Positions 2,518-28,890 of a stretch of 64,000 nucleotides of DNA are shown here, one piece after another. The position numbers and the translations under genes were made by a program. Position 1 is the first letter of the stretch, and each line of letters begins with the position of its first letter. Under the pieces are notes generated by a model. That model saw only the letters and a list, made by a program, of their open reading frames with translations, was not told the DNA's origin and ran no database searches. Source of the DNA: Candidatus Saccharimonadota bacterium. GTDB lineage: Bacteria; Patescibacteriota; Saccharimonadia; Saccharimonadales; CAIOMD01. The stretch spans positions 63,276 through 127,275 of the forward strand of contig DALYDK010000002.1 in assembly GCA_031973215.1 (NCBI GenBank). Direction: 5' to 3'.

Positions 2518-5397
2518 TTAGGCCTTTTTTATCTTGTGGCTTGATTTTTTAACTAGATATACCAAGCCAATAGCTATCGCAAGCAGTATTACGACTCCGC
2601 TTAGTGCAGGGGCAATACGACCAATTAGTATGCTAGCTACAACTGTAATTATTAACCAGCTAAGTCCGAGTTTTCTTGATACATTAATTTTCAAAAACTC
2701 GGCACCTAGGTAATAGTATGGAAACACTGTGATAACTAGTAGGGTGCTAGAAAGAAGTCCAAAAATAATCAGGACTGCTAAACCTTGCCAGAATGGGCTA
2801 AGAATAGCTAATGGAGTAATTGCCACAACAGCGGTTAAACTAGTGGCAATCAATGGCCTAAACCTTTCTTGCAAGCCCTCTACAATAGCATCTACCGGAC
2901 CCATACCAGACTTACGAGCCTGATTGGCATAATCTGTTAATAATATTGTATTTTTAATACTCAGTCCTATAAGAGCAAAAAAGCCTAACATAGCAAAGAA
3001 GCTAAATGGGTTATCTGTCAAATATAGACTAAGAGTTATTCCAAAGAAGCTAAATGGTATTGCAAAGAAGATTAATATTGGCTGAAGCAATGATCTGAAT
3101 TGTATGGCCAATAATATATATATAGATAACAAGATCAGCGGGAAAGCGATACCAAGTACCGCAAAACTTTCCTGATTTTCAGCCTCTTGCCCTAAGTCAA
3201 ACTGAATAGCATCCTTGTCTAGGCCGTAAGATTCTACTTTTTCTGGTGTGAATTCGTTATTTATTGCCTCCTCTGCCAAGTTAAACAACCTAGTCGTGTC
3301 TGACGCATCAAACTCTGCGCTAACTGGAACCCTTAGGTTTCCATCAGACCTAACGAATGTATTTGGATTAGGTGGATTTACATTAGTGACTGTTGCGGTT
3401 GTTCCATCTGGCCTGGTAACAGTCAGAGTCTCAAAGAAAGCGGCAATATCGTTAGCTAATTTGAACGAAGCCTCTCTATTATCATCTACAACCACTACGG
3501 TGAACGGTTGAGCGGGTGGTCCTGCATCTAGCTGGACTACTTTGGACTGGACCTGCGGTAAGCCAGAATCTAGTTCTTTCTGTACTTTATCTACCAACTG
3601 CGGAGATCTAATATCCCTTTTCGAATAAGATATTAACTTAATGCTCAAAGTTGCATCTCTTGTACTGCCCGTATTGTATAGTGAGCTATATTCTAAATTC
3701 TCGCCTAAAGTCTTGTATACCAATTCTGTAGCTTGGTTAGTTAGCTGTTCAGCGGTTTGTAAATTAGTGCCTGGAGCAAATGACAGCGTAACCTGCATAT
3801 TATTAGCGTCTTTAGAAGATGGAAATATGTTAAACGCTACCTTTGTACCAAAATATCCTCCAGCGCCAATGAAAAGCACACCAACAAATATTGCGGCCAT
3901 TCCAACTGCCGTTAATTTTTTGTATGATCCTTTTGCCCACAGCATCGGTTTTGCTATAAATTTTGCTAGCTTTTGCTCAATGCCTGCAGCCACTTCTTTA
4001 ACACCTTTTTCTCCCATGGATTTTTTGTTAAGTAGTAAGAATTTAGCAAAAAACGGAATAAAAATTAAAGATACTAGCAAGCTTATTAATAATGCAGAAA
4101 TAACAGTTGCGGGTATGGCTCTAATGAATGTTCCCAAGATACCCCCTACGAACAGCAGTGGAACAAAACTCAGCACCGCCACAAATGTAGCACTAAGCAT
4201 TGCTCTACTAATTTTCCTAGTTGCTTCAGAGACCGCTTTTCTGGCGTCTTTTTGTTTTTTGCGCTGAGCATCTATTGCTTCTACCATTATTATTGTGTCG
4301 TCGACTATTAAGGCTAAACTAAGAATCAGAGCGAAGAGCGTTATTACATTTAAGGTAAAGCCCAACAAGTACAAAAGGCCAATGACAGCAAAGATAATTA
4401 TAATAAGTGCAAAAACAGTTATTAATGAAGCTCTTAGGGCAATAACCAAAGCTCCTACTAACAATACCGCCAAAAGTGCAATTAATAATTCTCTCTGCAA
4501 TTCTGCTATATTGCTTTTTATTTCTGGGGCATAGCTGGCACTCACCACAAAACCCACGCTATTATCTTTTTGAGTAGAGGCAATTTCAGAAACGGCTTCA
4601 TTTACCTGGCTGTCAAATTTCAGTAAATCGGCATCTGTTTTCTTAGAAACTCCAACCAGAACAGATGGATATAGCTCATTCATACCCGACTCTCTCTGAC
4701 CATAGGCATCGAATGTTTTTTGAATTACCTGACTCTGGCCCGTGAAAGGATTAATAGCCGTATTAAAAGGATTAATTACAAAGGCTTTTTCTACAGTATC
4801 AAGGTTTTTTTCATTTAATGACTTAGTAAACGATTCTGCAGCAAGTAGTAAATCAGCTGTTGGCTGACCGCTTTTACCATATACTGAAATACCAATGTCA
4901 ACAGGTTCTAATTGAATACCTGCGGGGCTAAAATATGGAGCGCTAACTGTAACCGTTGCTTGCTCAGGTAGTACATTATTCTTCTGCAGTTCACTCTCTA
5001 ATTGTTTAGCAGCCTCTTGAGCGTTTACAGTCTCTTCGTATTGAATAAAAACATTAAAGAAATTATCGAATGACTGTGACTGTACAGAAGCAACCCCATT
5101 CTGCTTCATCGCAGTTTCTGCAATTGGTTTCGCAACCTTCGAGTCTACTGTTTCTGCATTGCCGATATATGTTCCGTTAATACTCGCCACAGGGAAGTTA
5201 ATACTCGGGAATCCTTCTCTTTTTAGGAGCGTTGTGTAGCTAATTACTCCAAATGCCAAAATCAACAGCATTAACAAAGCTGTAAATTTCGGTCTGTCGA
5301 AAAAAAACAAACTAAATTTTGGCAACAATTTAGCGTCTTTCTTAGTGAACTTCACTTTTTCAGCACTACTTTGTTTCTTGGCTTTTTTCCCCGGCAA
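2518..5397 (-). CDS. RND-superfamily (AcrB-like) efflux permease
   Basis: 959 aa. N-terminal FFFDRPKFTALLMLLILAFG resembles the AcrB start. Two large extracytoplasmic loops and two six-TM bundles. No adaptor (MFP) gene lies adjacent. Confidence 0.8.
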   Translation of the reverse strand: MPGKKAKKQSSAEKVKFTKKDAKLLPKFSLFFFDRPKFTALLMLLILAFGVISYTTLLKREGFPSINFPVASINGTYIGNAETVDSKVAKPIAETAMKQNGVASVQSQSFDNFFNVFIQYEETVNAQEAAKQLESELQKNNVLPEQATVTVSAPYFSPAGIQLEPVDIGISVYGKSGQPTADLLLAAESFTKSLNEKNLDTVEKAFVINPFNTAINPFTGQSQVIQKTFDAYGQRESGMNELYPSVLVGVSKKTDADLLKFDSQVNEAVSEIASTQKDNSVGFVVSASYAPEIKSNIAELQRELLIALLAVLLVGALVIALRASLITVFALIIIIFAVIGLLYLLGFTLNVITLFALILSLALIVDDTIIMVEAIDAQRKKQKDARKAVSEATRKISRAMLSATFVAVLSFVPLLFVGGILGTFIRAIPATVISALLISLLVSLIFIPFFAKFLLLNKKSMGEKGVKEVAAGIEQKLAKFIAKPMLWAKGSYKKLTAVGMAAIFVGVLFIGAGGYFGTKVAFNIFPSSKDANNMQVTLSFAPGTNLQTAEQLTNQATELVYKTLGENLEYSSLYNTGSTRDATLSIKLISYSKRDIRSPQLVDKVQKELDSGLPQVQSKVVQLDAGPPAQPFTVVVVDDNREASFKLANDIAAFFETLTVTRPDGTTATVTNVNPPNPNTFVRSDGNLRVPVSAEFDASDTTRLFNLAEEAINNEFTPEKVESYGLDKDAIQFDLGQEAENQESFAVLGIAFPLILLSIYILLAIQFRSLLQPILIFFAIPFSFFGITLSLYLTDNPFSFFAMLGFFALIGLSIKNTILLTDYANQARKSGMGPVDAIVEGLQERFRPLIATSLTAVVAITPLAILSPFWQGLAVLIIFGLLSSTLLVITVFPYYYLGAEFLKINVSRKLGLSWLIITVVASILIGRIAPALSGVVILLAIAIGLVYLVKKSSHKIKKA

Positions 5398-5455
5398 AAC
5401 ACCCTCCTAATTAATTAAGCTTTAAAATCAATTTTAGCACGACTTACTTTACAAT

Positions 5456-7231
5456 TTATAGTGATATTTCAAAACTTTTTAGTTTTTTCTTAGCTGAATC
5501 AGTTTGAGCACTGCTGACCTTTAGTAAGCTTGAATAAATACCTCCGCTTACGGCAAGTTCCGCAGGTGTGCCTATTTCATCTACCTGACCGTTTTTAAGA
5601 GTAATTATTTTGTCTACATGCGCAATGGTACTAAGCCTGTGCGCAATAATAATTGTGGTACGATTTTTCATTAACCTATTTAGAGCTTCTTGAACCATAA
5701 CTTCACTTTTGTTATCTAGGCTACTCGTAGCTTCGTCTAGAACTAATATAGGAGCGTCTTTTAGTAGAGCCCTGGCTATTGCTATTCTCTGTTTTTGGCC
5801 GCCGCTTAGCTTTAGGCCTCTTTCGCCAATTTGGGTGCTATAGCCTTTTTCTAGCTTTTCAATAAATTCTGATGCATTTGCATTTTTTGCTGCCTGTTTT
5901 ATTTTCGCAAGTTGAATATTTTCATCGGCGTAGGCAATATTTTCTTTTATTGTTCCACTAAAAAGTGCTGGCTCTTGGAACACTACTCCAATATTTTGGC
6001 GCAAAGATTTTTTGCTAACACTATTAATGTTCTGCCCATCAATAGATATTTCACCGCCGTTCGCATCGTAAAGCCTTAATAGTAAATTTGTTAGAGTAGT
6101 CTTGCCTTCTCCGCTTTCACCAACCAGTGCAACTTTTTCGCCTGGTTCAATGTTAAAAGATATATCCCTTAGAACCTGTTTTTTATCGTAAGCAAAAGAC
6201 ACATTACTAAATTCTATAGACGGTTTTTTAAATTTTAATTCCTTGGTTGCATCATTATCTTCGTTTTCGTTTTCAGATACAAGCGACATTACTTCGAAAT
6301 AATCCTTGCTATCGGCAATTGCTTTTTGAGTGTTATCTACCAAAAAACTAATTGTAAAAATTGGAATTCTAATTTGCATAGCATATAAAATTAATGCTAC
6401 CGCCTGACCTGGGCTAAATACTCCTTTAGCCCCTTGCACAAAAATAAACAAATAAACCAAAAAGAAAATAACATTAAGTACCAGTCTCCGCTGGACATCT
6501 TTTTTATGCCAATAAGCCGATTGTGGCTTATTAATGACAACAGCTTTTGAAACATATTTATTAAATTTACCAAGTTCGTACTTTTCTTTAATAAAACTCT
6601 TTACAACCTTAATTTGGTTAATTACTTCTGCGAACCTACCACTGGCAATGTCTAAATTTTCATTTTTTTCTTTTTGATACTTTTGCCAAACGTTGCTAGT
6701 TCTAAGAGTCAAAAATATATAAATTGGATACAAACTGCCAAGTAAAACAGCAACCTGCCAGCTATAGTACGCTACAATTCCAAGCGCAATAATTGTAGAA
6801 AAAATAAACTGCAAAAAGTTATTGCTAAGCATTTGCATAAAATTAGTAATTTGGTTAATTGATCTATTTAACCTATTAATAATTTTCCCGGAAAGCTCTG
6901 TATCAAAGTAGCTTTGCGGTAAATCTAAAACTTTTTGGTAATACCGAAAACTTAGCAGCCTAAATAGCTTCATAGAAAGCTGATCACCCCAGTATCCACT
7001 AATGTTGTTGCCAACTGTAGACACTACCTCAATAGCAAATATACCAACAGCCAACCAAACCATATAACTAATGTCGGCATTGGTTCCTTTTTGCATTTCA
7101 TCTATCGCCCAACCACTTAACAATGGCATAAGAAGACCAATTATGCTCAACAAAACGGTAAATATACTTATGGCCAAATAATAGCGCCATAGCTCTTTAC
7201 TGTATTTAACTATTTTCCAAATTTGATTCAT
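5456..7231 (-). CDS. ABC exporter, fused permease/ATPase (MsbA/multidrug type)
   Basis: 591 aa. N-terminal six-TM exporter domain. Walker A GESGEGKTT, signature LSGGQKQR, Walker B ILVLDEATSSLD, H-loop IIIAHR. Confidence 0.9.
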   Translation of the reverse strand: MNQIWKIVKYSKELWRYYLAISIFTVLLSIIGLLMPLLSGWAIDEMQKGTNADISYMVWLAVGIFAIEVVSTVGNNISGYWGDQLSMKLFRLLSFRYYQKVLDLPQSYFDTELSGKIINRLNRSINQITNFMQMLSNNFLQFIFSTIIALGIVAYYSWQVAVLLGSLYPIYIFLTLRTSNVWQKYQKEKNENLDIASGRFAEVINQIKVVKSFIKEKYELGKFNKYVSKAVVINKPQSAYWHKKDVQRRLVLNVIFFLVYLFIFVQGAKGVFSPGQAVALILYAMQIRIPIFTISFLVDNTQKAIADSKDYFEVMSLVSENENEDNDATKELKFKKPSIEFSNVSFAYDKKQVLRDISFNIEPGEKVALVGESGEGKTTLTNLLLRLYDANGGEISIDGQNINSVSKKSLRQNIGVVFQEPALFSGTIKENIAYADENIQLAKIKQAAKNANASEFIEKLEKGYSTQIGERGLKLSGGQKQRIAIARALLKDAPILVLDEATSSLDNKSEVMVQEALNRLMKNRTTIIIAHRLSTIAHVDKIITLKNGQVDEIGTPAELAVSGGIYSSLLKVSSAQTDSAKKKLKSFEISL

Positions 7232-7261: not shown

Positions 7262-7311
7262 AAAAAAATCGTTCCAGCAAAACACTAAATTGTTTAATGT
7301 TCTATTGGAAC
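7262..7311 (-). terminator. Intrinsic terminator on the minus strand (extended hairpin plus U-run)
   Basis: The minus strand reads GTTCCAatagAACATTAAAcaaTTTAGTGTTttgcTGGAAC followed by GATTTTTTTA. The internal T:G wobble is compatible only with the minus strand; the plus strand would have a C:A mismatch there. Confidence 0.7.
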
Positions 7312-7320
7312 GAACAGGTG

Positions 7321-7945
7321 TTGTTTGTCCGAGTGTCTACGGACTGTCCGCAGAACTCCCAACCGAAATCGGCTAGTGTTCGTTGGCGGGCTGCGCCTGC
7401 ACCCTACTTACCGCAGTGGGGGCACGGATAATGTCCTACTTGGTTTCCCTTGTAGTAAGTCATTTCGCACGCGCCACACTTTGTGGGGGTTGGCGTACGA
7501 AGCCCTTGTTGCTTTCTTCCTTGTAGCCCCATTTTTACTCCTAAAGGTAGATTGGGCCGAAAACGAAAGATTGGGGGTGTGCCCGGAGCATCAGTTACTG
7601 GCCGAAAGGTTACCAGTAAAAGCTCAACGGGCACACCCCACATTTCTGCACCTTCCCCGCGCAGAAATAGAGGAGCAGCAAGCTCCTAGCGAGGACTGGA
7701 GGAATTGCACCTCCTGAATTAAGGGAAGTTTAGTGATGCCTTGGCGGGGGGACCAAGGAATCATCACAACCCATAAAACCGGAGGCTAACCCTCCAGCCC
7801 TCTAGAGTGCTCGGCCGGGTCTCGGCCGACGGGGGAGACAACCTCCTCCGACCGAGCACCTCTCACCCAGGAAAACCCGGGGAGTGGTCGGACAGTGACT
7901 TCGGTTAGACCGAAGTATGCCCGCTTAGTGTGACCAAAAGCAAAC
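7321..7945. ncRNA. Large GC-rich, hairpin-dense structured RNA candidate of unknown class (orientation unresolved, minus favoured by the terminator)
   Basis: The block is visibly GC-enriched inside a 0.9-kb non-coding gap. Many perfect helices are present, for example GGGGTGTGCCCG/CGGGCACACCCC (7574-7585/7628-7639) enclosing TTACTGG/CCAGTAA and CC-GAAA-GG. Others are GTGATGCCTTGG/CCAAGG..CATCAC (7733-7767) and a three-way junction at 7804-7863. Long-range complements are 7343-7350/7889-7896 and 7385-7391/7919-7925. I recognised no RNase P, tmRNA, SRP or intron signatures. Confidence 0.6.
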
Positions 7946-8136
7946 TAATAGCAGGCATTTCTGCCGCAATAGTTTAGCCTTTTCGTCACTTAAAATGCTC
8001 TCTCTAAATAAAGAGCAATTTAAGTAACAAAAAAGTTTACCTAAAGGGCATTAACGCCTAAAAAAATAACAACACCTGTAAATGTGCTTACGCCACCCCT
8101 AAAATACATAGTGGGCATAGCCGTACTATGCTAACA

Positions 8137-8604
8137 CTATTTAGTCTTTGTGTCAACAGTATCTGTGGCTTTATTTTCCGAATTATTTTTATTTATGTTC
8201 CCAGCAATAATTGGAATAAGTAAAATAAGCCCACTAGCAATTGCAAACACTCCGGCAAGCCTTCTAATAATTGTCGTATCAAAAAGCTCAAAGGCTTTTG
8301 CGAACGCATACATAGCCAGTAATAGCAAAACACTTGCAATAATTTTCCCCTGCTTTGGGCTAGAGCCGTTCCATACAAAGGCCCCACAGGCTAACGCAAT
8401 GACACCAATCAACAATGATTCTGCCATAACGCTATCACTTGCGCTTAAAAGCAGAACTCCACCTATGAGCACCGATGCAATTGCACCAATTATTTTTACT
8501 ATTTTATTGAGCGTACCATTGTCTTTCACTACAAAACCCCTTTTACATAAATATAAACTATGGGGATGCTTTTGAATAGTGCTGTAGATTTTCTTATTAA
8601 GCAA
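8137..8604 (-). CDS. Hypothetical integral membrane protein
   Basis: 155-aa ORF with about 4 hydrophobic segments (IIGAIASVLIGGVLLL, LLIGVIALACGAFVW and others). The start is uncertain, because the first Met overlaps the divergent rarA upstream region. Confidence 0.5.
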   Translation of the reverse strand: MLNKKIYSTIQKHPHSLYLCKRGFVVKDNGTLNKIVKIIGAIASVLIGGVLLLSASDSVMAESLLIGVIALACGAFVWNGSSPKQGKIIASVLLLLAMYAFAKAFELFDTTIIRRLAGVFAIASGLILLIPIIAGNINKNNSENKATDTVDTKTK

Positions 8605-8622
8605 AGGTTTATACTTAAATAT

Positions 8623-9792
8623 ATGAACAACCAGCCATTGGCAGAAAAAATGAGACCAACCAATTTAGATGATGTCTTTGGGCAAAAGAATCTTGTTGGA
8701 CCCGGCAAAATAATTACTAGACTCATTGAAACCAAACAACCAACAAGCTTAATTCTTTGGGGGCCACCAGGAACGGGCAAAACAACACTTGCCAGAATTA
8801 TTGCCAGCCAAACAGAGTCAGATTTTATTGAACTTTCTGCCGTCACCGCCGGCAAGGCAGATGTTAGCCGGGTTAGCGAACACGCCAAACAAAATAAAAG
8901 GCTTGGCATGCGCACAATTTTATTTGTCGATGAAATTCACAGATTCAATAAAGCCCAGCAAGATGCATTTCTGCCACTGGTTGAATCGGGAATAATAGTT
9001 CTTATTGGGGCAACTACCGAAAACCCAAGTTTCGAGGTAATTAATCCTCTGTTAAGCAGAAGCAGGGTTTTAGTTTTAGAACCATTAACAACTGAAGCCA
9101 TAGAAGAAATTATTAAAAGAGCAGCAAAACAAGAAAAAATCAGCCGTAAACAATTGCCATCAAGTAGCATAAGGCTATTAGCAGAACTATCTTCTGGTGA
9201 TGCCCGAGTAGCACTCAATAATTTAGAGCTAGCCAGTAACTTGGCAAAGAATTCAACAATATCCAAAGAAGTTATTCTTACCGCAGCTCAGAAAAAAGTT
9301 CCTATTTTTGATAAGTCGGCAGACGCTCATTACGATATAATTAGCGCTTATATAAAGAGTCTTCGCGGAGGATCTGTAGAAGGTGCACTTTATTGGCTTG
9401 CCAGAGCACTGCAGGCGGGAGAAGATCCTAAGTTTATAGCTAGAAGAATGATTATTTTCGCATCTGAAGATATTGGTCTAGCCGGTAATGGAGCGCTCTC
9501 CCTGGCCGTTGCCACATTTCAGGCTGTAGAACGAATTGGCATGCCAGAGTGTAGATATAATTTATTTCACTGCGCGGTAGCTTTAGCTAAATCAAAAAAA
9601 TCACGAGAAATTACTAATTTAATGACAAATGCGCAGGTTTTAGCAGAAAATTACCCTGACTCGCCCGTTCCGCTGCATTTAAGAAACGCGCCAACAAAAC
9701 TAATGAAAAGCCTGGGCTACGGTAAAAACTATGAATGGCAAGCAGATTTTGTTCCCGAAGACGGCTTTTTACCGAAAGATATAAAACCCTAG
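8623..9792 (+). CDS. rarA: Replication-associated recombination protein A (AAA+ ATPase)
   Basis: MNNQPLAEKMRPTNLDDVFGQ is a typical RarA N-terminus. Walker A GPPGTGKTT, Walker B LFVDEIHRFNK, MgsA C-terminal region (ALYWLARALQAGEDP). I chose the ATG at 8623 rather than the track start at 8560. Confidence 0.9.
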   Translation: MNNQPLAEKMRPTNLDDVFGQKNLVGPGKIITRLIETKQPTSLILWGPPGTGKTTLARIIASQTESDFIELSAVTAGKADVSRVSEHAKQNKRLGMRTILFVDEIHRFNKAQQDAFLPLVESGIIVLIGATTENPSFEVINPLLSRSRVLVLEPLTTEAIEEIIKRAAKQEKISRKQLPSSSIRLLAELSSGDARVALNNLELASNLAKNSTISKEVILTAAQKKVPIFDKSADAHYDIISAYIKSLRGGSVEGALYWLARALQAGEDPKFIARRMIIFASEDIGLAGNGALSLAVATFQAVERIGMPECRYNLFHCAVALAKSKKSREITNLMTNAQVLAENYPDSPVPLHLRNAPTKLMKSLGYGKNYEWQADFVPEDGFLPKDIKP

Positions 9793-9814
9793 CAAGACAA
9801 ACATAGCCTATACT

Positions 9815-9843
9815 TTTTATAAATTATAAGAGTTTGGTATAAT
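9815..9843 (+). promoter_or_regulatory. Putative extended -10 promoter upstream of the tRNA-like/tRNA-Gln region
   Basis: TGGTATAAT at 9835-9843 (TGn plus TATAAT). A weak -35 (TTTTAT) lies 17 nt upstream. It sits about 15 nt before the pseudo-tRNA. Confidence 0.45.
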
Positions 9844-9858
9844 TTATCGGCGAATCAT

Positions 9859-9925
9859 TAGGGTGTCGCTCGGGTGCGTAAGGCACTGAGGTTCACGGTC
9901 CCAGCATTCGGGGTGAGAATTGCCA
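9859..9925 (+). pseudogene. tRNA-Gln-like pseudo-tRNA (5' acceptor half through variable region; T-arm degenerate, no 3' acceptor)
   Basis: It aligns with the intact tRNA-Gln downstream: GCGTAAGGCACTGAGGTTCACGGTCCCAGCATTCGGGG versus GCGGTAAGGCACTGGGTTCTGGTCCCAGGATCGGGGG. The anticodon stem-loop is 2 nt too long. The T-loop reads TGAGAAT with no pairing stem. The 5' acceptor half TAGGGTG has no local partner. Confidence 0.55.
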
Positions 9926-9980
9926 GTGACAATTCGCAAGGCAATCTTCACTTTAAAGCTATACTTTCAAAGCTTAAGTT

Positions 9981-10035
9981 GCGGGGTCGCGGAACGTGAC
10001 TCGAATCCCAAATTTATTAACATTACGAACCCCGC
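9981..10035 (+). other. Hairpin (GCGGGGT/ACCCCGC) enclosing a tRNA T-loop-like TCGAATCCC core
   Basis: 7-bp stem at 9981-9987/10029-10035. The interior GGAACGTGACTCGAATCCC resembles the fragment at 10799-10820 (GGAAGCAAGCGCTCGAATCCC). Confidence 0.4.
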
Positions 10036-10060
10036 TTGGGTTATAATAGAGCAAAGTTAT

Positions 10061-10134
10061 TGGGGATTGGCCAAGCGGTAAGGCACTGGGTTCTGGTCCC
10101 AGGATCGGGGGTTCGAATCCCTCATCCCCAGCCA
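10061..10134 (+). tRNA. tRNA-Gln (anticodon CUG), CCA encoded
   Basis: Cloverleaf read by eye: TGGGGAT TG GCC AAGCGGTAA GGC A CTGGG TTCTGGT CCCAG GATC GGGGG TTCGAAT CCCTC ATCCCCA G CCA. U1:A72 and G73 are typical of Gln. Confidence 0.9.
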
Positions 10135-10158
10135 AGTAGTGCACCAAAGGAGACCTGT

Positions 10159-10680
10159 GTGGATCGCCACAAATTATTTCTAGAAACAGTAAAAGAGCTT
10201 AAGTTAAGGTCATCTTCTCAAGAATATTACGACAACTTGATGTCAGCTGGTTTGCTGGCAAAACTACTACTTGACGGACATTCATTAGTGGACGAAGTTA
10301 ATCGTACCGCGCGTCTAAAAATTCGCTATAGAATTGTAAAGCAAAATCCCCCGGCAATACCAAACCTAGTTTTTTGGGCGGCACAAGACGGAATTGATCC
10401 GAATGATCAGCCTCCTGGCAGTCCAAGCCCCGAAGAATTATCATTGGATGACATGTTAAAAGTTCCACTCATGATTTATGGTGGGCAAGAATATAACGTT
10501 GCAGAGAGTATAAATTTTCTACGTAACAAGGCCGGTGCTGTGCATATTGGTCCAAGCAATTCGGATAAAGATAAGGTGCTTGGTGATGCTACTCAGCCCG
10601 TTGCAAGAAGTATGAAAGCCGTAGCAAGGGTAGTATTAAATAGTCTAGAACCGCTAATTAAAGTTATTAGGTCGAACTAG
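10159..10680 (+). CDS. Hypothetical protein with Rx6H (HEPN-like) motif
   Basis: The track ORF 10036..10680 runs through the tRNA. A GTG at 10159, preceded by AAGGAG (10147-10152), gives a 173-aa product. No family was recognised. Contains INFLRNKAGAVHIG. Confidence 0.55.
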   Translation: MDRHKLFLETVKELKLRSSSQEYYDNLMSAGLLAKLLLDGHSLVDEVNRTARLKIRYRIVKQNPPAIPNLVFWAAQDGIDPNDQPPGSPSPEELSLDDMLKVPLMIYGGQEYNVAESINFLRNKAGAVHIGPSNSDKDKVLGDATQPVARSMKAVARVVLNSLEPLIKVIRSN

Positions 10681-10809
10681 ACCTGTACGCACAGCCAAAT
10701 GCGACAGTTGAAAATCATACCTATCTCCCTATTGTTATATATAGGTCAGAAGGTCTGATTTAGTATCAGGTTAGTGTACCAGACCCGTAAGTCTAGCCAG
10801 GAAGCAAGC

Positions 10810-10833
10810 GCTCGAATCCCTCCACCCTAGCCA
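10810..10833 (+). repeat. tRNA 3'-end fragment (T-loop/T-stem/acceptor/CCA), att-like scar
   Basis: GCTCGAATCCCTCCACCCTAGCCA, compared with GTTCGAATCCCTCATCCCCAGCCA in tRNA-Gln. Its acceptor half CACCCTA is the exact complement of TAGGGTG at 9859-9865. No upstream T-stem partner, so it is not a functional tRNA. Confidence 0.55.
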
Positions 10834-10837
10834 AATA

Positions 10838-10868
10838 ATTTAGACCTGAGTTAAGATTAGGTCTAAAT
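10838..10868. terminator. 10-bp perfect hairpin between convergent transcription units
   Basis: ATTTAGACCT-(11 nt)-AGGTCTAAAT. On the minus strand it is followed by TATTTGG, a weak U-tract. It lies downstream of the 10906 gene end. Confidence 0.4.
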
Positions 10869-10905
10869 GAATTGGCAAAAGTAATCGTCTGGCTAGGTCA
10901 GGATC

Positions 10906-11649
10906 TTATTGCACTAAAGATTTAATTGTTTTGATAATTAGATCTTTTGGAAGAGGTTCGCTTAGACTAAACCAAAGAGTTCCCTTGCCCTTTTGGTAGG
11001 GCTGTAATGCTAATTTCAGCCCTGCTTCTTTGGGCACTGGATATACTCCCAGGTGGTCTTTCCAGCCTGAAATAAATACTCTTGGTCGTTTTTCATCAAT
11101 TTTATATCCTACTACACCATAACTAAGCACTTCTTGAGCATTTGGTAAAGTTTGCTTAACTAATTTTCTAAGTTCATTAAATCTAGGCAGTGCAGCGGCC
11201 GGAACCTGTCGGCAATATTCATCTACAGTGGTAGGTTTTTGTAAAATGTTAGCACCAACCTTGAATGACTTTTTGAGCATTTGTTTAAGAATATTAACGT
11301 CAATATCCGTTAGTTTCGTAATGTATAAGCACGAAACACTTACCTTGTATTTGCCTAAGCTGCTAAGCTCCCCCGAATAACGATCAAAGCCTTCTGCAAA
11401 ATAGACCGAAATAGCCTGTTTTCTTGGGCTAAAACTAAGTATTGGCATATCGCCCTCTCTGCCACTATCGTATTTATAATGCTGGCTTCCAAAACCAATA
11501 ATACTAGGGCCCCACATTACGGGATCCAGCTTGCTAATTTTTGACATTATTTCTATTAATTCTTTTGACTCATTCTGCCTATTTAAAGAAAGGTCTGAAA
11601 TAAAATGCGTAACATTTGCGTTTGTGGGCATTGTTTTGTTGTCGGTCAT
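10906..11649 (-). CDS. Tandem DUF1801 (YdhG-like) domain protein
   Basis: Two DUF1801-like halves (NVTHFISDL...WGPSIIGFG and VDEYCRQVP...SYGVVGYK...LWFSL). I chose the start at Met30 (11649) because the first 29 codons overlap a canonical plus-strand promoter. Starting at 11736 remains possible. Confidence 0.6.
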   Translation of the reverse strand: MTDNKTMPTNANVTHFISDLSLNRQNESKELIEIMSKISKLDPVMWGPSIIGFGSQHYKYDSGREGDMPILSFSPRKQAISVYFAEGFDRYSGELSSLGKYKVSVSCLYITKLTDIDVNILKQMLKKSFKVGANILQKPTTVDEYCRQVPAAALPRFNELRKLVKQTLPNAQEVLSYGVVGYKIDEKRPRVFISGWKDHLGVYPVPKEAGLKLALQPYQKGKGTLWFSLSEPLPKDLIIKTIKSLVQ

Positions 11650-11721
11650 ATAAAAAGTATATATTTTTTTATTAAATGAAATAGTACTATTGTACTCACG
11701 GGAGTTTATAACACAAGCATA

Positions 11722-11750
11722 TTGACTTTTTTTCATGCTTATGCTATAAT
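11722..11750 (+). promoter_or_regulatory. Sigma70-type promoter for the surface-protein gene
   Basis: TTGACT (11722-11727), a 17-nt spacer ending in TGC, then TATAAT (11745-11750). The downstream 5'UTR has a hairpin GGGATTgtggAATCCC and an AAGGAG RBS. Confidence 0.6.
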
Positions 11751-28715: not shown

Positions 28716-28750
28716 AATCTGCTAAAATAATATTATTAACAATTTAGTAT

Positions 28751-28890
28751 CACGAGTGCGAGGAGAGAACTAGCTCTATGATCCGCCGGCAACCTGCTGA
28801 AAATGCAAGGTGCTCCATCTAGCCATAATTTTTTGGGAAGATAACAAGACAATCCTTTCTAAGCACTCGTGGCAAATTTATGAAAGGATT
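28751..28890 (+). promoter_or_regulatory. SAM-I (S-box) riboswitch with SD-sequestering expression platform
   Basis: P1 is CACGAGTGC/GCACTCGTG (28751-28759/28863-28871). Core GAGGAGAGAACTAGCTCTATGATCCGCCGGCAACC...AAGGTGCT. AATCCTTTC (28851-28859) is complementary to GAAAGGATT (28882-28890), which covers the metK RBS. Confidence 0.8.

Follow-up and report, generated by a model that had tools for sequence, protein, structure and literature searches.

The rarA/DUF1801 intergenic site of this Candidatus Saccharibacteria genome is a hot spot for tRNA-Gln(CUG) genes, and its arrangement is probably best explained by a resident tRNA-Gln gene (type B) that was split by a structured element, M, acquired an intact tRNA-Gln downstream, and later underwent cargo entry and block exchange. 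We analyzed this site within a 64-kb stretch of contig (the window); coordinates are window positions, and all features lie on the + strand. The intergenic sequence (9793-10905, 1113 nt) is 100% identical in L129 and L130, from two other metagenome assemblies, and the locus is therefore not an artefact; in a third assembly (L131), the pseudo-tRNA/M junction is identical and the contig stops ~340 nt after rarA. Every sequence piece named in the original prediction is present in the window, with the same sequence in L129 and L130. The best matches of RarA are Saccharibacteria metagenome-assembled genomes at 67-68% identity, and a search for an empty site by RarA synteny among GTDB species representatives found none, these relatives (≤68%) being too distant; empty and filled states were instead obtained from exact-protein look-ups.

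The resident gene is represented by two separated pieces. Its promoter (9816-9843; TTTATA, 16 nt and TATAAT with a TG extension, 10/12 in the consensus scan) is the extended -10 promoter recognized in the original prediction, and it is kept in the conspecific alleles L254, L255 and L262. The decayed 5' part of the type B tRNA-Gln(CUG) follows at 9859-9912 and stops in the 5' strand of the T stem. Alignment with the intact type B gene that L255 carries at the same locus reveals a common acceptor strand (TAGGGTG) and variable loop (CATTC), and shows that the pseudo copy has mispairing in its anticodon stem and changes in its D loop. This copy is 94% identical to its orthologs in L262 and L255 and is called by neither ARAGORN nor Rfam. 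The tRNA-like segment previously placed at 9859-9925 is thus real and aligns with the L255 gene, but it stops at 9912, the remainder (9913-9925) being the start of M; its anticodon stem-loop is indeed 2 nt longer, a trait common to the orthologous pseudo copies in L255 and L262.

The second piece, TCGAATCCCTCCACCCTAGCCA (10812-10833), comprises the T loop from T55, the 3' strand of the T stem, the acceptor strand CACCCTA, G73 and CCA, and it matches exactly the 3'-terminal 22 nt of the intact type B tRNA that L255 and L081 carry. The predicted complementarity of the acceptor halves (TAGGGTG/CACCCTA) is real and, since the same pairing is found again in the intact gene of relatives, is not due to chance. 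The terminal CTAGCCA (10827-10833) repeats 10793-10799, and the type B 3' end had no match in viral contigs. A long hairpin that includes the GCCA end (10830-10876; 18-nt arms, 89% complementary, detected as inverted repeat I2 and in the predicted fold) is identical in L254, L255 and L262; we interpret it as the resident gene's own terminator, although the consensus terminator scan does not list it. Downstream of this hairpin, TGGCTAGG (10890-10897, inverted repeat I8) briefly repeats CCTAGCCA in inverted orientation, comparable to the inverted copies that begin with TGG in class B loci.

Between these pieces, element M occupies 9913-10000 (covariance model R1, 84.8 bits, E 1.3e-17) and is the only copy detected by that model in the 64-kb window. 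This 88-nt insertion element folds into three hairpins in the order GUGA, P1, GCAAG, P2, GGG and P3, ending in GUGAC, and replaces the three bases G52-G53-T54 of the type B T arm. Directly 3' of M lies the T-loop remainder TCGAATCCC (10001-10009, read from the sequence), a layout shared with L262, L255, L082 and many class A loci. The third TCGAATCCC core reported earlier at this position is present, but the core and its hairpin are the standard right flank of M. That hairpin forms, in the predicted fold, between GCGGGG (9981-9986) of M and CGAACCCCGC (10026-10035, read from the sequence), an inverted and uninterrupted copy of the T stem and T loop. Similar inverted copies recur in class A loci (for example GACTTGAACC and GAGTCGAACC), measuring ~10 nt in class A and ~33 nt, with a TGG start, in class B; the model proposed below leaves them unexplained. 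The supposed resemblance between the left flanks of the T-loop cores does not hold: GGAAC.GTGAC is the conserved last hairpin of M, and GGAAGCAAGCGC (10800-10811) is an unrelated 12-nt linker that also occurs in L262. Neither at the gathering threshold nor at E ≤10 does any Rfam 15 family match 9913-10000, and cmscan of 9700-11000, run up to E = 10, recovered only the tRNA plus two hits due to chance, with no group I match.

The inner block continues with an intact type A tRNA-Gln(CUG) at 10061-10134 (acceptor TGGGGAT/ATCCCCA, CCA encoded), which, as predicted, is called by both ARAGORN and Rfam (60.8 bits) and is the sole tRNA-like call in the region. It is 98.6% identical to the tRNA beside the ORF173 homolog in L082. 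A TATAAT box 13 nt upstream (10042-10047, read from the sequence) may belong to a second promoter; it is not listed by the consensus scan because its -35 is poor, and comparable -10 boxes occur in the spacer of other class A loci. The cargo gene ORF173, taken from the open reading frame list (10159-10680; GTG start, ribosome-binding site AAGGAG at 10147-10152), has only five homologs among 5.8 billion proteins and no Pfam, PHROG, PADLOC or NCBIfam match, and its AlphaFold2 model (pLDDT 80) has no PDB fold match; the protein contains an R-x6-H motif. Region R (10693-10799), the conserved right part of the cargo segment, begins with AGCCA, a decayed tRNA 3'-end repeat, and ends with CTAGCCA; it is collinear with L255, where a different cargo precedes it, and together with the terminator it has a strong predicted fold (z = -5.3). 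Comparison with L262, which reads ...ATCCCTAGCCA GGAAGCAAGCGC TCGAATCCC..., identifies 10793-10811 as CTAGCCA, the 7-nt 3' terminus of a type C tRNA-Gln, followed by GGAAGCAAGCGC, the 12-nt linker of an ancestral 224-nt insert.

Comparison with relatives, which the original prediction had called for, uncovered four alleles of the site on conspecific contigs whose flanks are 91-100% identical; some samples, such as 3300056999, contain several of them. The simplest allele (L262-L265) contains the pseudo-B 5' part, M, TCGAATCC, a 42-nt spacer, an intact type C tRNA-Gln, the 12-nt linker and the B 3' fragment; its B pieces are separated by an insert of 224 nt that contains a whole tRNA-Gln(CUG), and GGT is lost. 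The window allele, also present in L129 and L130, has M, the type A tRNA and ORF173 between the B pieces. L255 and L256 carry the same pseudo copy, an L262-type M with a second M nested in it, an intact type B tRNA, an HNH gene, a 180-aa gene and region R, while in L254 an 848-nt deletion has left no tRNA at the locus and removed part of M. Between the window and L262, identity is 91% upstream, 94% in the pseudo copy and 100% downstream, but only 70% in M; the window M is 79% identical to that of L082, which with L083 represents a second contig lineage that has other flanking genes and an inner block closest to that of the window. By this comparison of sequences, the inner block of the window (M, type A tRNA-Gln and ORF173) appears to have been swapped in later. 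The proposal that a second Gln-type tRNA (U1:A72, G73) was split by an insert bearing tRNA-Gln(CUG), offered originally as an alternative, is essentially right, the B pieces of L262-L265 lying 224 nt apart; the 0.9-kb insert of the window is larger and of later date, its inner tRNA allele and its cargo having been exchanged.

To place M in a wider context, we scanned metagenome contigs with its pattern and matched at least 120 stretches. Alignment of the 108 distinct copies among the matches listed, each 85-90 nt long, shows pairing in 96.9% of cells, as compared with 79% in shuffles and ~40% when partners are slid; double-change cells number 497 versus 106 in shuffles, and 24 of the 30 pairs show compensatory change. 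One invariant G.U pair and 42 U.G pairs indicate that the functional strand of M is the sense strand of the tRNA. In tRNA genes, and in a few genes for other small RNAs, M lies in sense orientation within loops; its sites are in the T loop, D arm, anticodon loop and variable loop, and in 48 of 50 measurable cases it replaces exactly three tRNA bases. The replaced triplet is always G-N-N (GTT 21, GGT 11, GCG 8, GCA 4, GGC 3 and GAG 1) and is the only constant feature of the site, as no common left flank is seen (cggg, taga, ggag, aagt, taag and others). The ends of M, GUGAG... and ...GUGAC, are similar in direct rather than inverted orientation. We know of no transposition or recombination chemistry that replaces exactly three nucleotides.

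The host of M is a truncated tRNA copy with an intact copy alongside. M is carried by 25 of the 27 upstream 5' partial tRNA copies, and a survivorship-only model, in which M merely hits pre-existing fragments, is accordingly rejected for 5' copies; 3' fragment duplicates without M are frequent downstream of tRNAs in these contigs (16 of 39). Furthermore, a filled/empty pair is found between strains, L262 reading TTTTCGG[GGT]CGCC where L255 reads TTTTCGG[89-nt M variant]CGCC, the insertion being inside another M, and this pair indicates that M is mobile and able to insert alone. At no fewer than eight loci M occupies the D arm of a tRNA-Gly(GCC) copy, seemingly at one ancestral site, with pairing kept through compensatory changes; this retention points to selection on M in place or to frequent conversion, and suits a cellular function as well as selfish mobility. 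In class B loci M also occurs downstream of terminators, where its expression is doubtful. Two other candidates were set aside: tmRNA as a host in L209 and L243, where ARAGORN finds no tmRNA and the hosts are 3' fragments beside tRNA-Leu, and GCCAGGAAGnAAGCG as a further repeat family, which has one other locus only, probably by chance, and consists of a tRNA 3' end plus linker.

Searches for a partner or a vehicle of M were negative. Clustering of all open reading frames gave no consistent partner gene, the largest shared protein cluster covering 12 of the 120 listed loci and appearing housekeeping, and large serine recombinases adjoin M at just 4 of the 120 listed. A looser M pattern gave 43 matches in viral contigs, all by chance in coding DNA, and BLAST of the M consensus against plasmids and phages gave no match. 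The full-text literature on tRNA introns and insertions in CPR, Patescibacteria and Saccharibacteria contained nothing relevant to M, and the family is apparently undescribed so far.

Repeats that fit site-specific integration bound the cargo segments, and the att duplications of the original prediction hold for these segments but not for the tRNA break. ORF173 is flanked by the tRNA 3'-end repeats CCCCAGCCA (10126-10134) and ACAGCCA (10691-10697); in L082, ATCCCCAGCCA follows the ORF173 stop and a longer 3' fragment lies just upstream of the ORF, while the cargo of L255 is flanked by CTAGCCA. Of the type A tRNA, the viral contigs L132 and L133 have just the 31-32 nt at the 3' end, a segment resembling attP, and in L133 a Phage_integrase (tyrosine integrase) gene lies ~130 bp from it (E 2.8e-39). 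The T-arm break, on the other hand, has no identity segment, holds M and has lost G-G-T. As originally stated, no integrase is present: neither phmmer, queried with the integrase of a Saccharibacteria phage, nor a large-serine-recombinase HMM gave a hit in the 64-kb window. The window contains no recombinase, reverse transcriptase or nuclease gene. A purely classical scar, with the fragments being attL/attR duplications of decayed tyrosine-integrase elements and M a remnant of an element end, could account for the repeats around the cargo, for the attP-like viral fragments with one adjoining integrase gene, and for the common M-less 3' duplicates (16/39). We consider it improbable, however, because it would not provide for a T-arm break that lacks an identity segment and loses 3 nt, for an M conserved with covariation in a large number of tRNA species and sites, the D arm and anticodon loop among them, for the absence of M from viral contigs, or for the near absence of 5' partial copies without M.

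A stronger challenge to M as an insertion comes from its potential role as a cellular noncoding RNA in tRNA leaders or trailers (a processing, stability, decoy or regulatory module) that is spread by tRNA-gene recombination, the locus then being a normal tRNA-Gln operon with a leader. The strong, strand-specific covariation of M would fit such a role, as would its co-orientation with the tRNA behind its own upstream promoter, its retained structure at the apparently ancestral tRNA-Gly site, its presence in all four alleles despite sequence differences, and its absence from viral contigs, phages and plasmids. We still regard this possibility as rather unlikely, given the filled/empty polymorphism of an M variant within M among near-identical strains, the exact 3-nt replacement repeated at unrelated positions in unrelated RNAs, the class B copies downstream of terminators with doubtful expression, and the loss of part of M and the tRNA in L254. 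A functional split or intron-containing tRNA, assembled from the 5' piece and the distant 3' fragment or from the 5' piece minus M, perhaps with an 8-9-nt anticodon loop, would draw on the exactly complementary acceptor halves and on the promoter of the 5' piece, yet it is already contradicted and has hardly any probability. Removal of M never restores a tRNA, because three nucleotides are missing (in 48 of 50 cases across the family); the host copies also lack a 5' or 3' part, and for non-tRNA hosts removal of M with several fill-ins yields no tRNA in ARAGORN. In addition, the anticodon stem of the pseudo copy is mispaired and its D loop altered relative to intact type B, no Rfam intron model matches and ARAGORN reports nothing, L255 has an intact type B gene between the equivalent pieces, and the region is deleted in L254. 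The locus is not a working split or intron-bearing functional tRNA.

We therefore return to the M-split type B gene and propose the following history. A type B tRNA-Gln with its own promoter and terminator was broken in the T arm, G52-G53-T54 being replaced and the 5' (9859-9912) and 3' (10812-10833) pieces left in place, as the comparison with relatives shows; the left end of the interruption is M. An intact tRNA-Gln with its own -10 box lies just downstream of M and the T-loop remainder, and lineages may have kept or regained function by gaining such a copy through recombination at the remainder; in the simplest allele, an 8-nt TCGAATCC repeat lies around this part. Such acquisition of an intact copy would account for the constant presence of an intact tRNA next to the truncated copy that carries M. 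Cargo later came in at the inner tRNA's 3' end, as the repeats indicate, through site-specific recombination that presumably relied on an enzyme acting in trans, and the allele differences show exchange of the whole inner block between strains. The order, M first and intact tRNA later, is the one we infer; alternatively, the 224-nt insert may have arrived in one piece.

If M is mobile with a precise three-base rule, it would be a new way for selfish nucleic acids to reshape tRNA genes, and it could account for many truncated tRNA copies and tRNA-fragment arrays in similar genomes. Tentatively, and with more doubt than confidence, we suggest that M may be a new class of mobile structured element: an 88-nt cloverleaf-like module without an ORF that would recognize exposed loops of tRNAs and other small RNAs and swap in for exactly three nucleotides (G-N-N) through a reaction at the level of RNA or single strands that resembles no known chemistry of introns, transposons or recombinases. 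Hosts, Saccharibacteria at least, would thereby be forced to rebuild their tRNA genes through partial duplication. Strongly covarying and present on more than 100 contigs, it is a candidate ribozyme or protein-binding RNA. It is also a practical annotation marker, as the tRNA pieces are missed by tRNA finders and the conspecific L131 contig ends inside the region. The four alleles in one species, with both tRNA and cargo swapped (one gene, ORF173, versus an HNH nuclease gene and another gene), show that this tRNA hot spot turns over rapidly within a very small genome.

Among known systems, split tRNAs of the Nanoarchaeum type differ in that the 5' piece here is decayed, just 22 nt make up the 3' piece, no leader complementarity is seen and L254 lacks most of the region. 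In Thermoproteales archaea, mobile bulge-helix-bulge tRNA introns transpose between tRNA positions (Fujishima 2010, as cited in PMC10714607, a meeting report that does no more than mention mobile tRNA introns of archaea and rRNA introns of CPR). M resembles them as a set of short related sequences at the D arm, anticodon loop, variable loop and T arm of many tRNA species; unlike them, its host is bacterial, its excision leaves the tRNA unrestored, its hosts are truncated pseudogenes beside intact genes, and its fold consists of its own three hairpins rather than a boundary motif. Group I introns of bacterial tRNA anticodon loops are likewise structured, sense-strand, mobile RNA elements inside tRNA genes, but M has 88 nt instead of at least 200 nt, fails to match the Rfam group I model even at E = 10, and lacks both a U at -1 and a terminal G; its insertion sites extend beyond the anticodon loop, and exon restoration is impossible.

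Small nonautonomous insertion elements of bacterial genes include MITEs, Rickettsia palindromic elements, which sit inside both RNA and protein genes, and IS200/IS605-derived palindromic elements. M shares with these elements a size of ~100 nt, the lack of an ORF, many copies, a wealth of hairpins and, presumably, mobilization in trans. It differs from MITEs and IS-derived miniature elements in having no terminal inverted repeats and in the loss of 3 nt without target-site duplication, and from IS200/IS605-derived elements in having no fixed tetra- or pentanucleotide 5' of its left end; its G.U pairs and strict sense orientation point to an RNA or single-strand structure, and its targets are almost only tRNA-like loops. 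For P4-type tyrosine integrases, sublocations of integration into tRNA 3' ends were reportedly described by Williams in 2002. Like the islands of these integrases, the locus combines a tRNA target, 3'-end repeats that bound the cargo, an intact tRNA and strain-variable cargo, with a matching attP and integrase on a viral contig for the type A 3' end only. Unlike such islands, the window holds no integrase and the T-arm break shows three lost bases and no repeated identity segment; a complete tRNA gene, promoter included, has been substituted where islands bring a 3' segment, and a conserved structured element marks the junction.

The 1113-nt intergenic region between rarA (8560-9792) and a minus-strand DUF1801 gene (10906-11736) contains a single tRNA called by ARAGORN and Rfam, the tRNA-Gln(CUG) at 10061-10134. 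All sequence items listed in the original prediction are present in the window: a promoter at 9816-9843 (consensus score 10/12, with a TG extension), a tRNA-like stretch that begins TAGGGTG at 9859, TCGAATCCC at 10001-10009 and the 22-nt fragment TCGAATCCCTCCACCCTAGCCA at 10812-10833. Two independent metagenome assemblies (L129 and L130) match the region at 100% identity, and a third contig, L131, which stops ~340 nt past rarA, has an identical junction between the pseudo-tRNA and the structured element M described below; an assembly artefact is thus excluded. The best MAG relatives of RarA (67-68% identical) are Candidatus Saccharibacteria, which places the organism in that group. Elsewhere in the window, ~650 nt at 7310-7950 have 52-57% G+C in a genome of roughly 38% and form long hairpins (e.g., 7576-7640); with no credible ORF and only spurious miRNA matches from Rfam, this stretch is a candidate large non-coding RNA on either strand. 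A SAM riboswitch (S box) at 28744-28847 scores 52.3 bits, exceeding the gathering score.

Past the T-stem of the pseudo-tRNA, the sequence is conserved, with compensatory changes, between the window and L082, a metagenome contig whose own pseudo-tRNA carries a third copy in its D loop. A gapped pattern for this element, M, hits one site in the window, where none is expected by chance, and at least 120 stretches in metagenome contigs, with a matched length of 75-80 nt throughout the matches listed; deduplication of those matches left 108 distinct copies of 85-90 nt and five longer variants. The alignment consensus, GUGAGAACUGCCAGUGGCAGUUCGCAAGGAAACCUUCCGAUGgCAACUnGUUgCCAAUCGuGAAGUUUCGGGGUCGCGGAACGUGAC, folds into three hairpins joined by the invariant linkers GUGA, GCAAG and GGG. 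Paired cells amount to 96.9%, vs. 79% in shuffles and ~40% with slid partners, double-change cells number 497 vs. 106 in shuffles, and compensatory change is seen at 24 of the 30 pairs. One pair is an invariant G.U, and a different position has 42 U.G pairs, which limits the fold to the tRNA sense strand. Variants in L147 and L191 end in a different hairpin (CCUGCC...GGUAGG). The covariance model R1 places M at 9913-10000 (84.8 bits, E 1.3e-17) as the sole copy in 64 kb, and finds two copies in L082 and one in L011, a Saccharibacteria MAG locus where an intact tRNA-Gln(CUG) is preceded, at a distance of 42 nt, by a 16-nt tRNA-Gln stub with M in its D loop; the window species and L011 are the only M carriers assigned to Saccharibacteria. 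None of the proteins encoded at M loci is generally linked to M. At eight or more loci, M copies that seem to share one ancestral tRNA-Gly site have kept their pairing, as would be expected from a function in situ or from frequent replacement through conversion.

To define where M resides, we ran ARAGORN on all oriented M loci and compared their flanks. Class A, which includes the window, accounts for 53 of 115 distinct instances among the matches listed and runs from a promoter through a tRNA 5' part, M and a few T-loop bases to a short inverted copy of the uninterrupted T-arm, a spacer with a -10 box and an intact copy of that tRNA whose start lies 110-160 nt past that of M. In class B (39 of 115 among the matches listed), an intact tRNA is followed by a terminator hairpin and by an inverted and partly diverged tRNA 3' copy beginning TGG; M then lies between a direct copy of positions 41-53 and positions 56-76 with CCA, ahead of a second terminator. 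Where both M flanks could be mapped on the neighboring intact tRNA, M replaces exactly three tRNA bases in 48 of 50 cases among the matches listed, and the triplet is always G-N-N (GTT 21, GGT 11, GCG 8, GCA 4, GGC 3, GAG 1), in the T loop, the D-stem 3' strand or D loop, positions 37-39 of the anticodon loop, or the variable loop. Because three bases are replaced, a tRNA is in no case regained by removing M, and every host copy is partial; an intron is therefore excluded. Upstream 5' partial copies carry M in 25 of 27 cases; among downstream 3' partial copies, 23 have M and 16 lack it, sometimes with other inserts. A second, unrelated insert family (a hairpin plus GGCACTTTTGGAGATTnATCnAnAAAAGCG) occupies the T loop of such downstream 3' fragments, at L014 5437-5560 and, in L207, downstream of tRNA-Arg(tcg). 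M also occurs in hosts for which ARAGORN gave neither tRNA nor tmRNA (L145, L159, L238 and L142; L171, L184, L190, L203 and L247): one consists of repeats of a hairpin unit (...CAGAGGGGGTGGGCACCGCTG...), of which an empty paralogue lies next to a filled copy and which, by our reading of L159, also fits the three-base rule, and the other is a putative RNA, GGGTGACGTTTGGTGG[M]CAACCC.

The tRNA-Gln(CUG) alleles differ in acceptor sequence. The intact window tRNA is type A (TGGGGAT/ATCCCCA), while the pseudo-copy (9859-9912) and the 22-nt fragment share the type B acceptor TAGGGTG/CACCCTA. Conspecific contigs with flanks 91-100% identical, retrieved by exact-protein look-up of near-identical DUF1801 and RarA, reveal four alleles. 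In allele 1 (L262-L265), 224 nt stand in place of GGT between the type B pieces: M, TCGAATCC, a 42-nt spacer, an intact type C tRNA-Gln(CUG) (TAGGGAT...ATCCCTAGCCA) and the linker GGAAGCAAGCGC, with the 8-nt TCGAATCC repeat bracketing spacer, tRNA and linker. Allele 2 (window, L129, L130) has 899 nt between these pieces: its own M version (M'), a spacer, the type A tRNA, the cargo gene ORF173 (10159-10680), the conserved region R (10693-10799) and CTAGCCA plus GGAAGCAAGCGC. In allele 3 (L255, L256), a second M variant sits inside the allele-1 M; a duplicated promoter and an intact type B tRNA come next, followed by a gene for a 236-aa HNH protein, a 180-aa gene and region R, which ends in CTAGCCA. 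The stretch of 34 nt that separates the two CTAGCCA repeats is absent, and hence there is no separate type B 3' fragment. In allele 4 (L254, 4306-4387, minus strand), a truncated M is joined to CTAGCCA and the terminator, ~848 nt including tRNA-Gln(CUG) are gone and none is left at the locus, so that this tRNA is possibly dispensable in that strain. Alleles 1 and 3 form a clean empty/filled pair (L262, TTTTCGG[GGT]CGCC; L255, TTTTCGG[89-nt M variant]CGCC), which shows that an M-family element inserted recently, independently of other sequence, and in obedience to the three-base rule. These two genes of L255 are an alternative cargo at the same site: the 236-aa protein (5016-5723, minus strand) has a C-terminal HNH motif (Pfam 5.7e-4, below cut-off) and a PADLOC REase_II match (3.7e-6); the 180-aa protein (4451-4990, minus strand) gave no match in family searches.

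The original prediction read 9815-10868 as a split Gln-type tRNA or as att duplications. This is partly right: type B pieces bracket inserts carrying tRNA-Gln(CUG) in alleles 1 and 2, so that a second tRNA-Gln was split, and att-like tRNA 3'-end copies flank the cargo; the main feature, the 88-nt M from a large family of structured elements, had been overlooked. Disruption of the type B gene is old, as the window and alleles 1 and 3 share the decay of the pseudo-copy (an altered D loop and an anticodon loop longer by 2 nt). Window 10793-10811 (CTAGCCA plus GGAAGCAAGCGC) is made up of the final 7 nt of the type C tRNA and its linker, so the allele in the window derives from a state like allele 1. 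Identity to L262 is 91% in the upstream 150 nt, 94% in the pseudo-copy, 70% in M and 100% in the downstream 150 nt; L082 is 79% identical in M and 98.6% in the type A tRNA. This pattern suggests that M', the type A tRNA, ORF173 and R, which make up the inner block, were swapped together, most likely through recombination with DNA of an L082-like lineage.

ORF173 has just five homologues among 5.8 billion proteins. L082 and L083 encode one 83% identical, amid flanking genes that differ from those of the window, in the order decayed tRNA-Gln 5' copy, intact type A tRNA, type A 3' fragment, ORF173 and a further ATCCCCAGCCA. L081, with a 60% identical homologue, begins inside a tRNA-Gln(CUG) with a type B 3' end, followed by 17 nt, a type A 3' fragment and the homologue, the reverse of the window arrangement of types A and B. 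The ORF173 structure model is confident (pLDDT 80); family searches and a PDB fold search gave no match, the IRE1 RNase domain alone appearing far below significance. Residues ~119-131 hold a conserved FLRNKAGAVHIG, whose R-x6-H spacing recalls that of HEPN RNases.

The tRNA 3'-end repeats that bound the window cargo are what site-specific integration into the acceptor end would leave. Of the type A tRNA, viral contigs L132 and L133 contain only the 3'-terminal 31-32 nt, and a Phage_integrase gene (E 2.8e-39) in L133 stops ~130 bp from this segment. Searches of the window for a tyrosine integrase, a large serine recombinase and an HNH gene found none. Four other loci have large serine recombinase genes in convergent orientation with the tRNA of an M unit: L196 9402-11255 and L244 754-2322 (Resolvase, Recombinase and Zn_ribbon_recom) and L215 369-1814 (Resolvase and Recombinase) adjoin the tRNA itself, and L178 5722-7404 (Resolvase only) an M-bearing tRNA 3' fragment. 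L134 has a fifth gene of this kind, ~5 kb away from M.

Searches for M in Rfam 15, PLSDB plasmids and INPHARED phages gave no match, its pattern gives nothing but chance matches in IMG/VR viral contigs, and the literature searched holds no counterpart. An exact 3-nt replacement corresponds, to our knowledge, to no chemistry of transposition or recombination. We rate the locus as a tRNA-targeted insertion of a new form, and there is a real chance that M represents a new kind of mobile RNA-like element.
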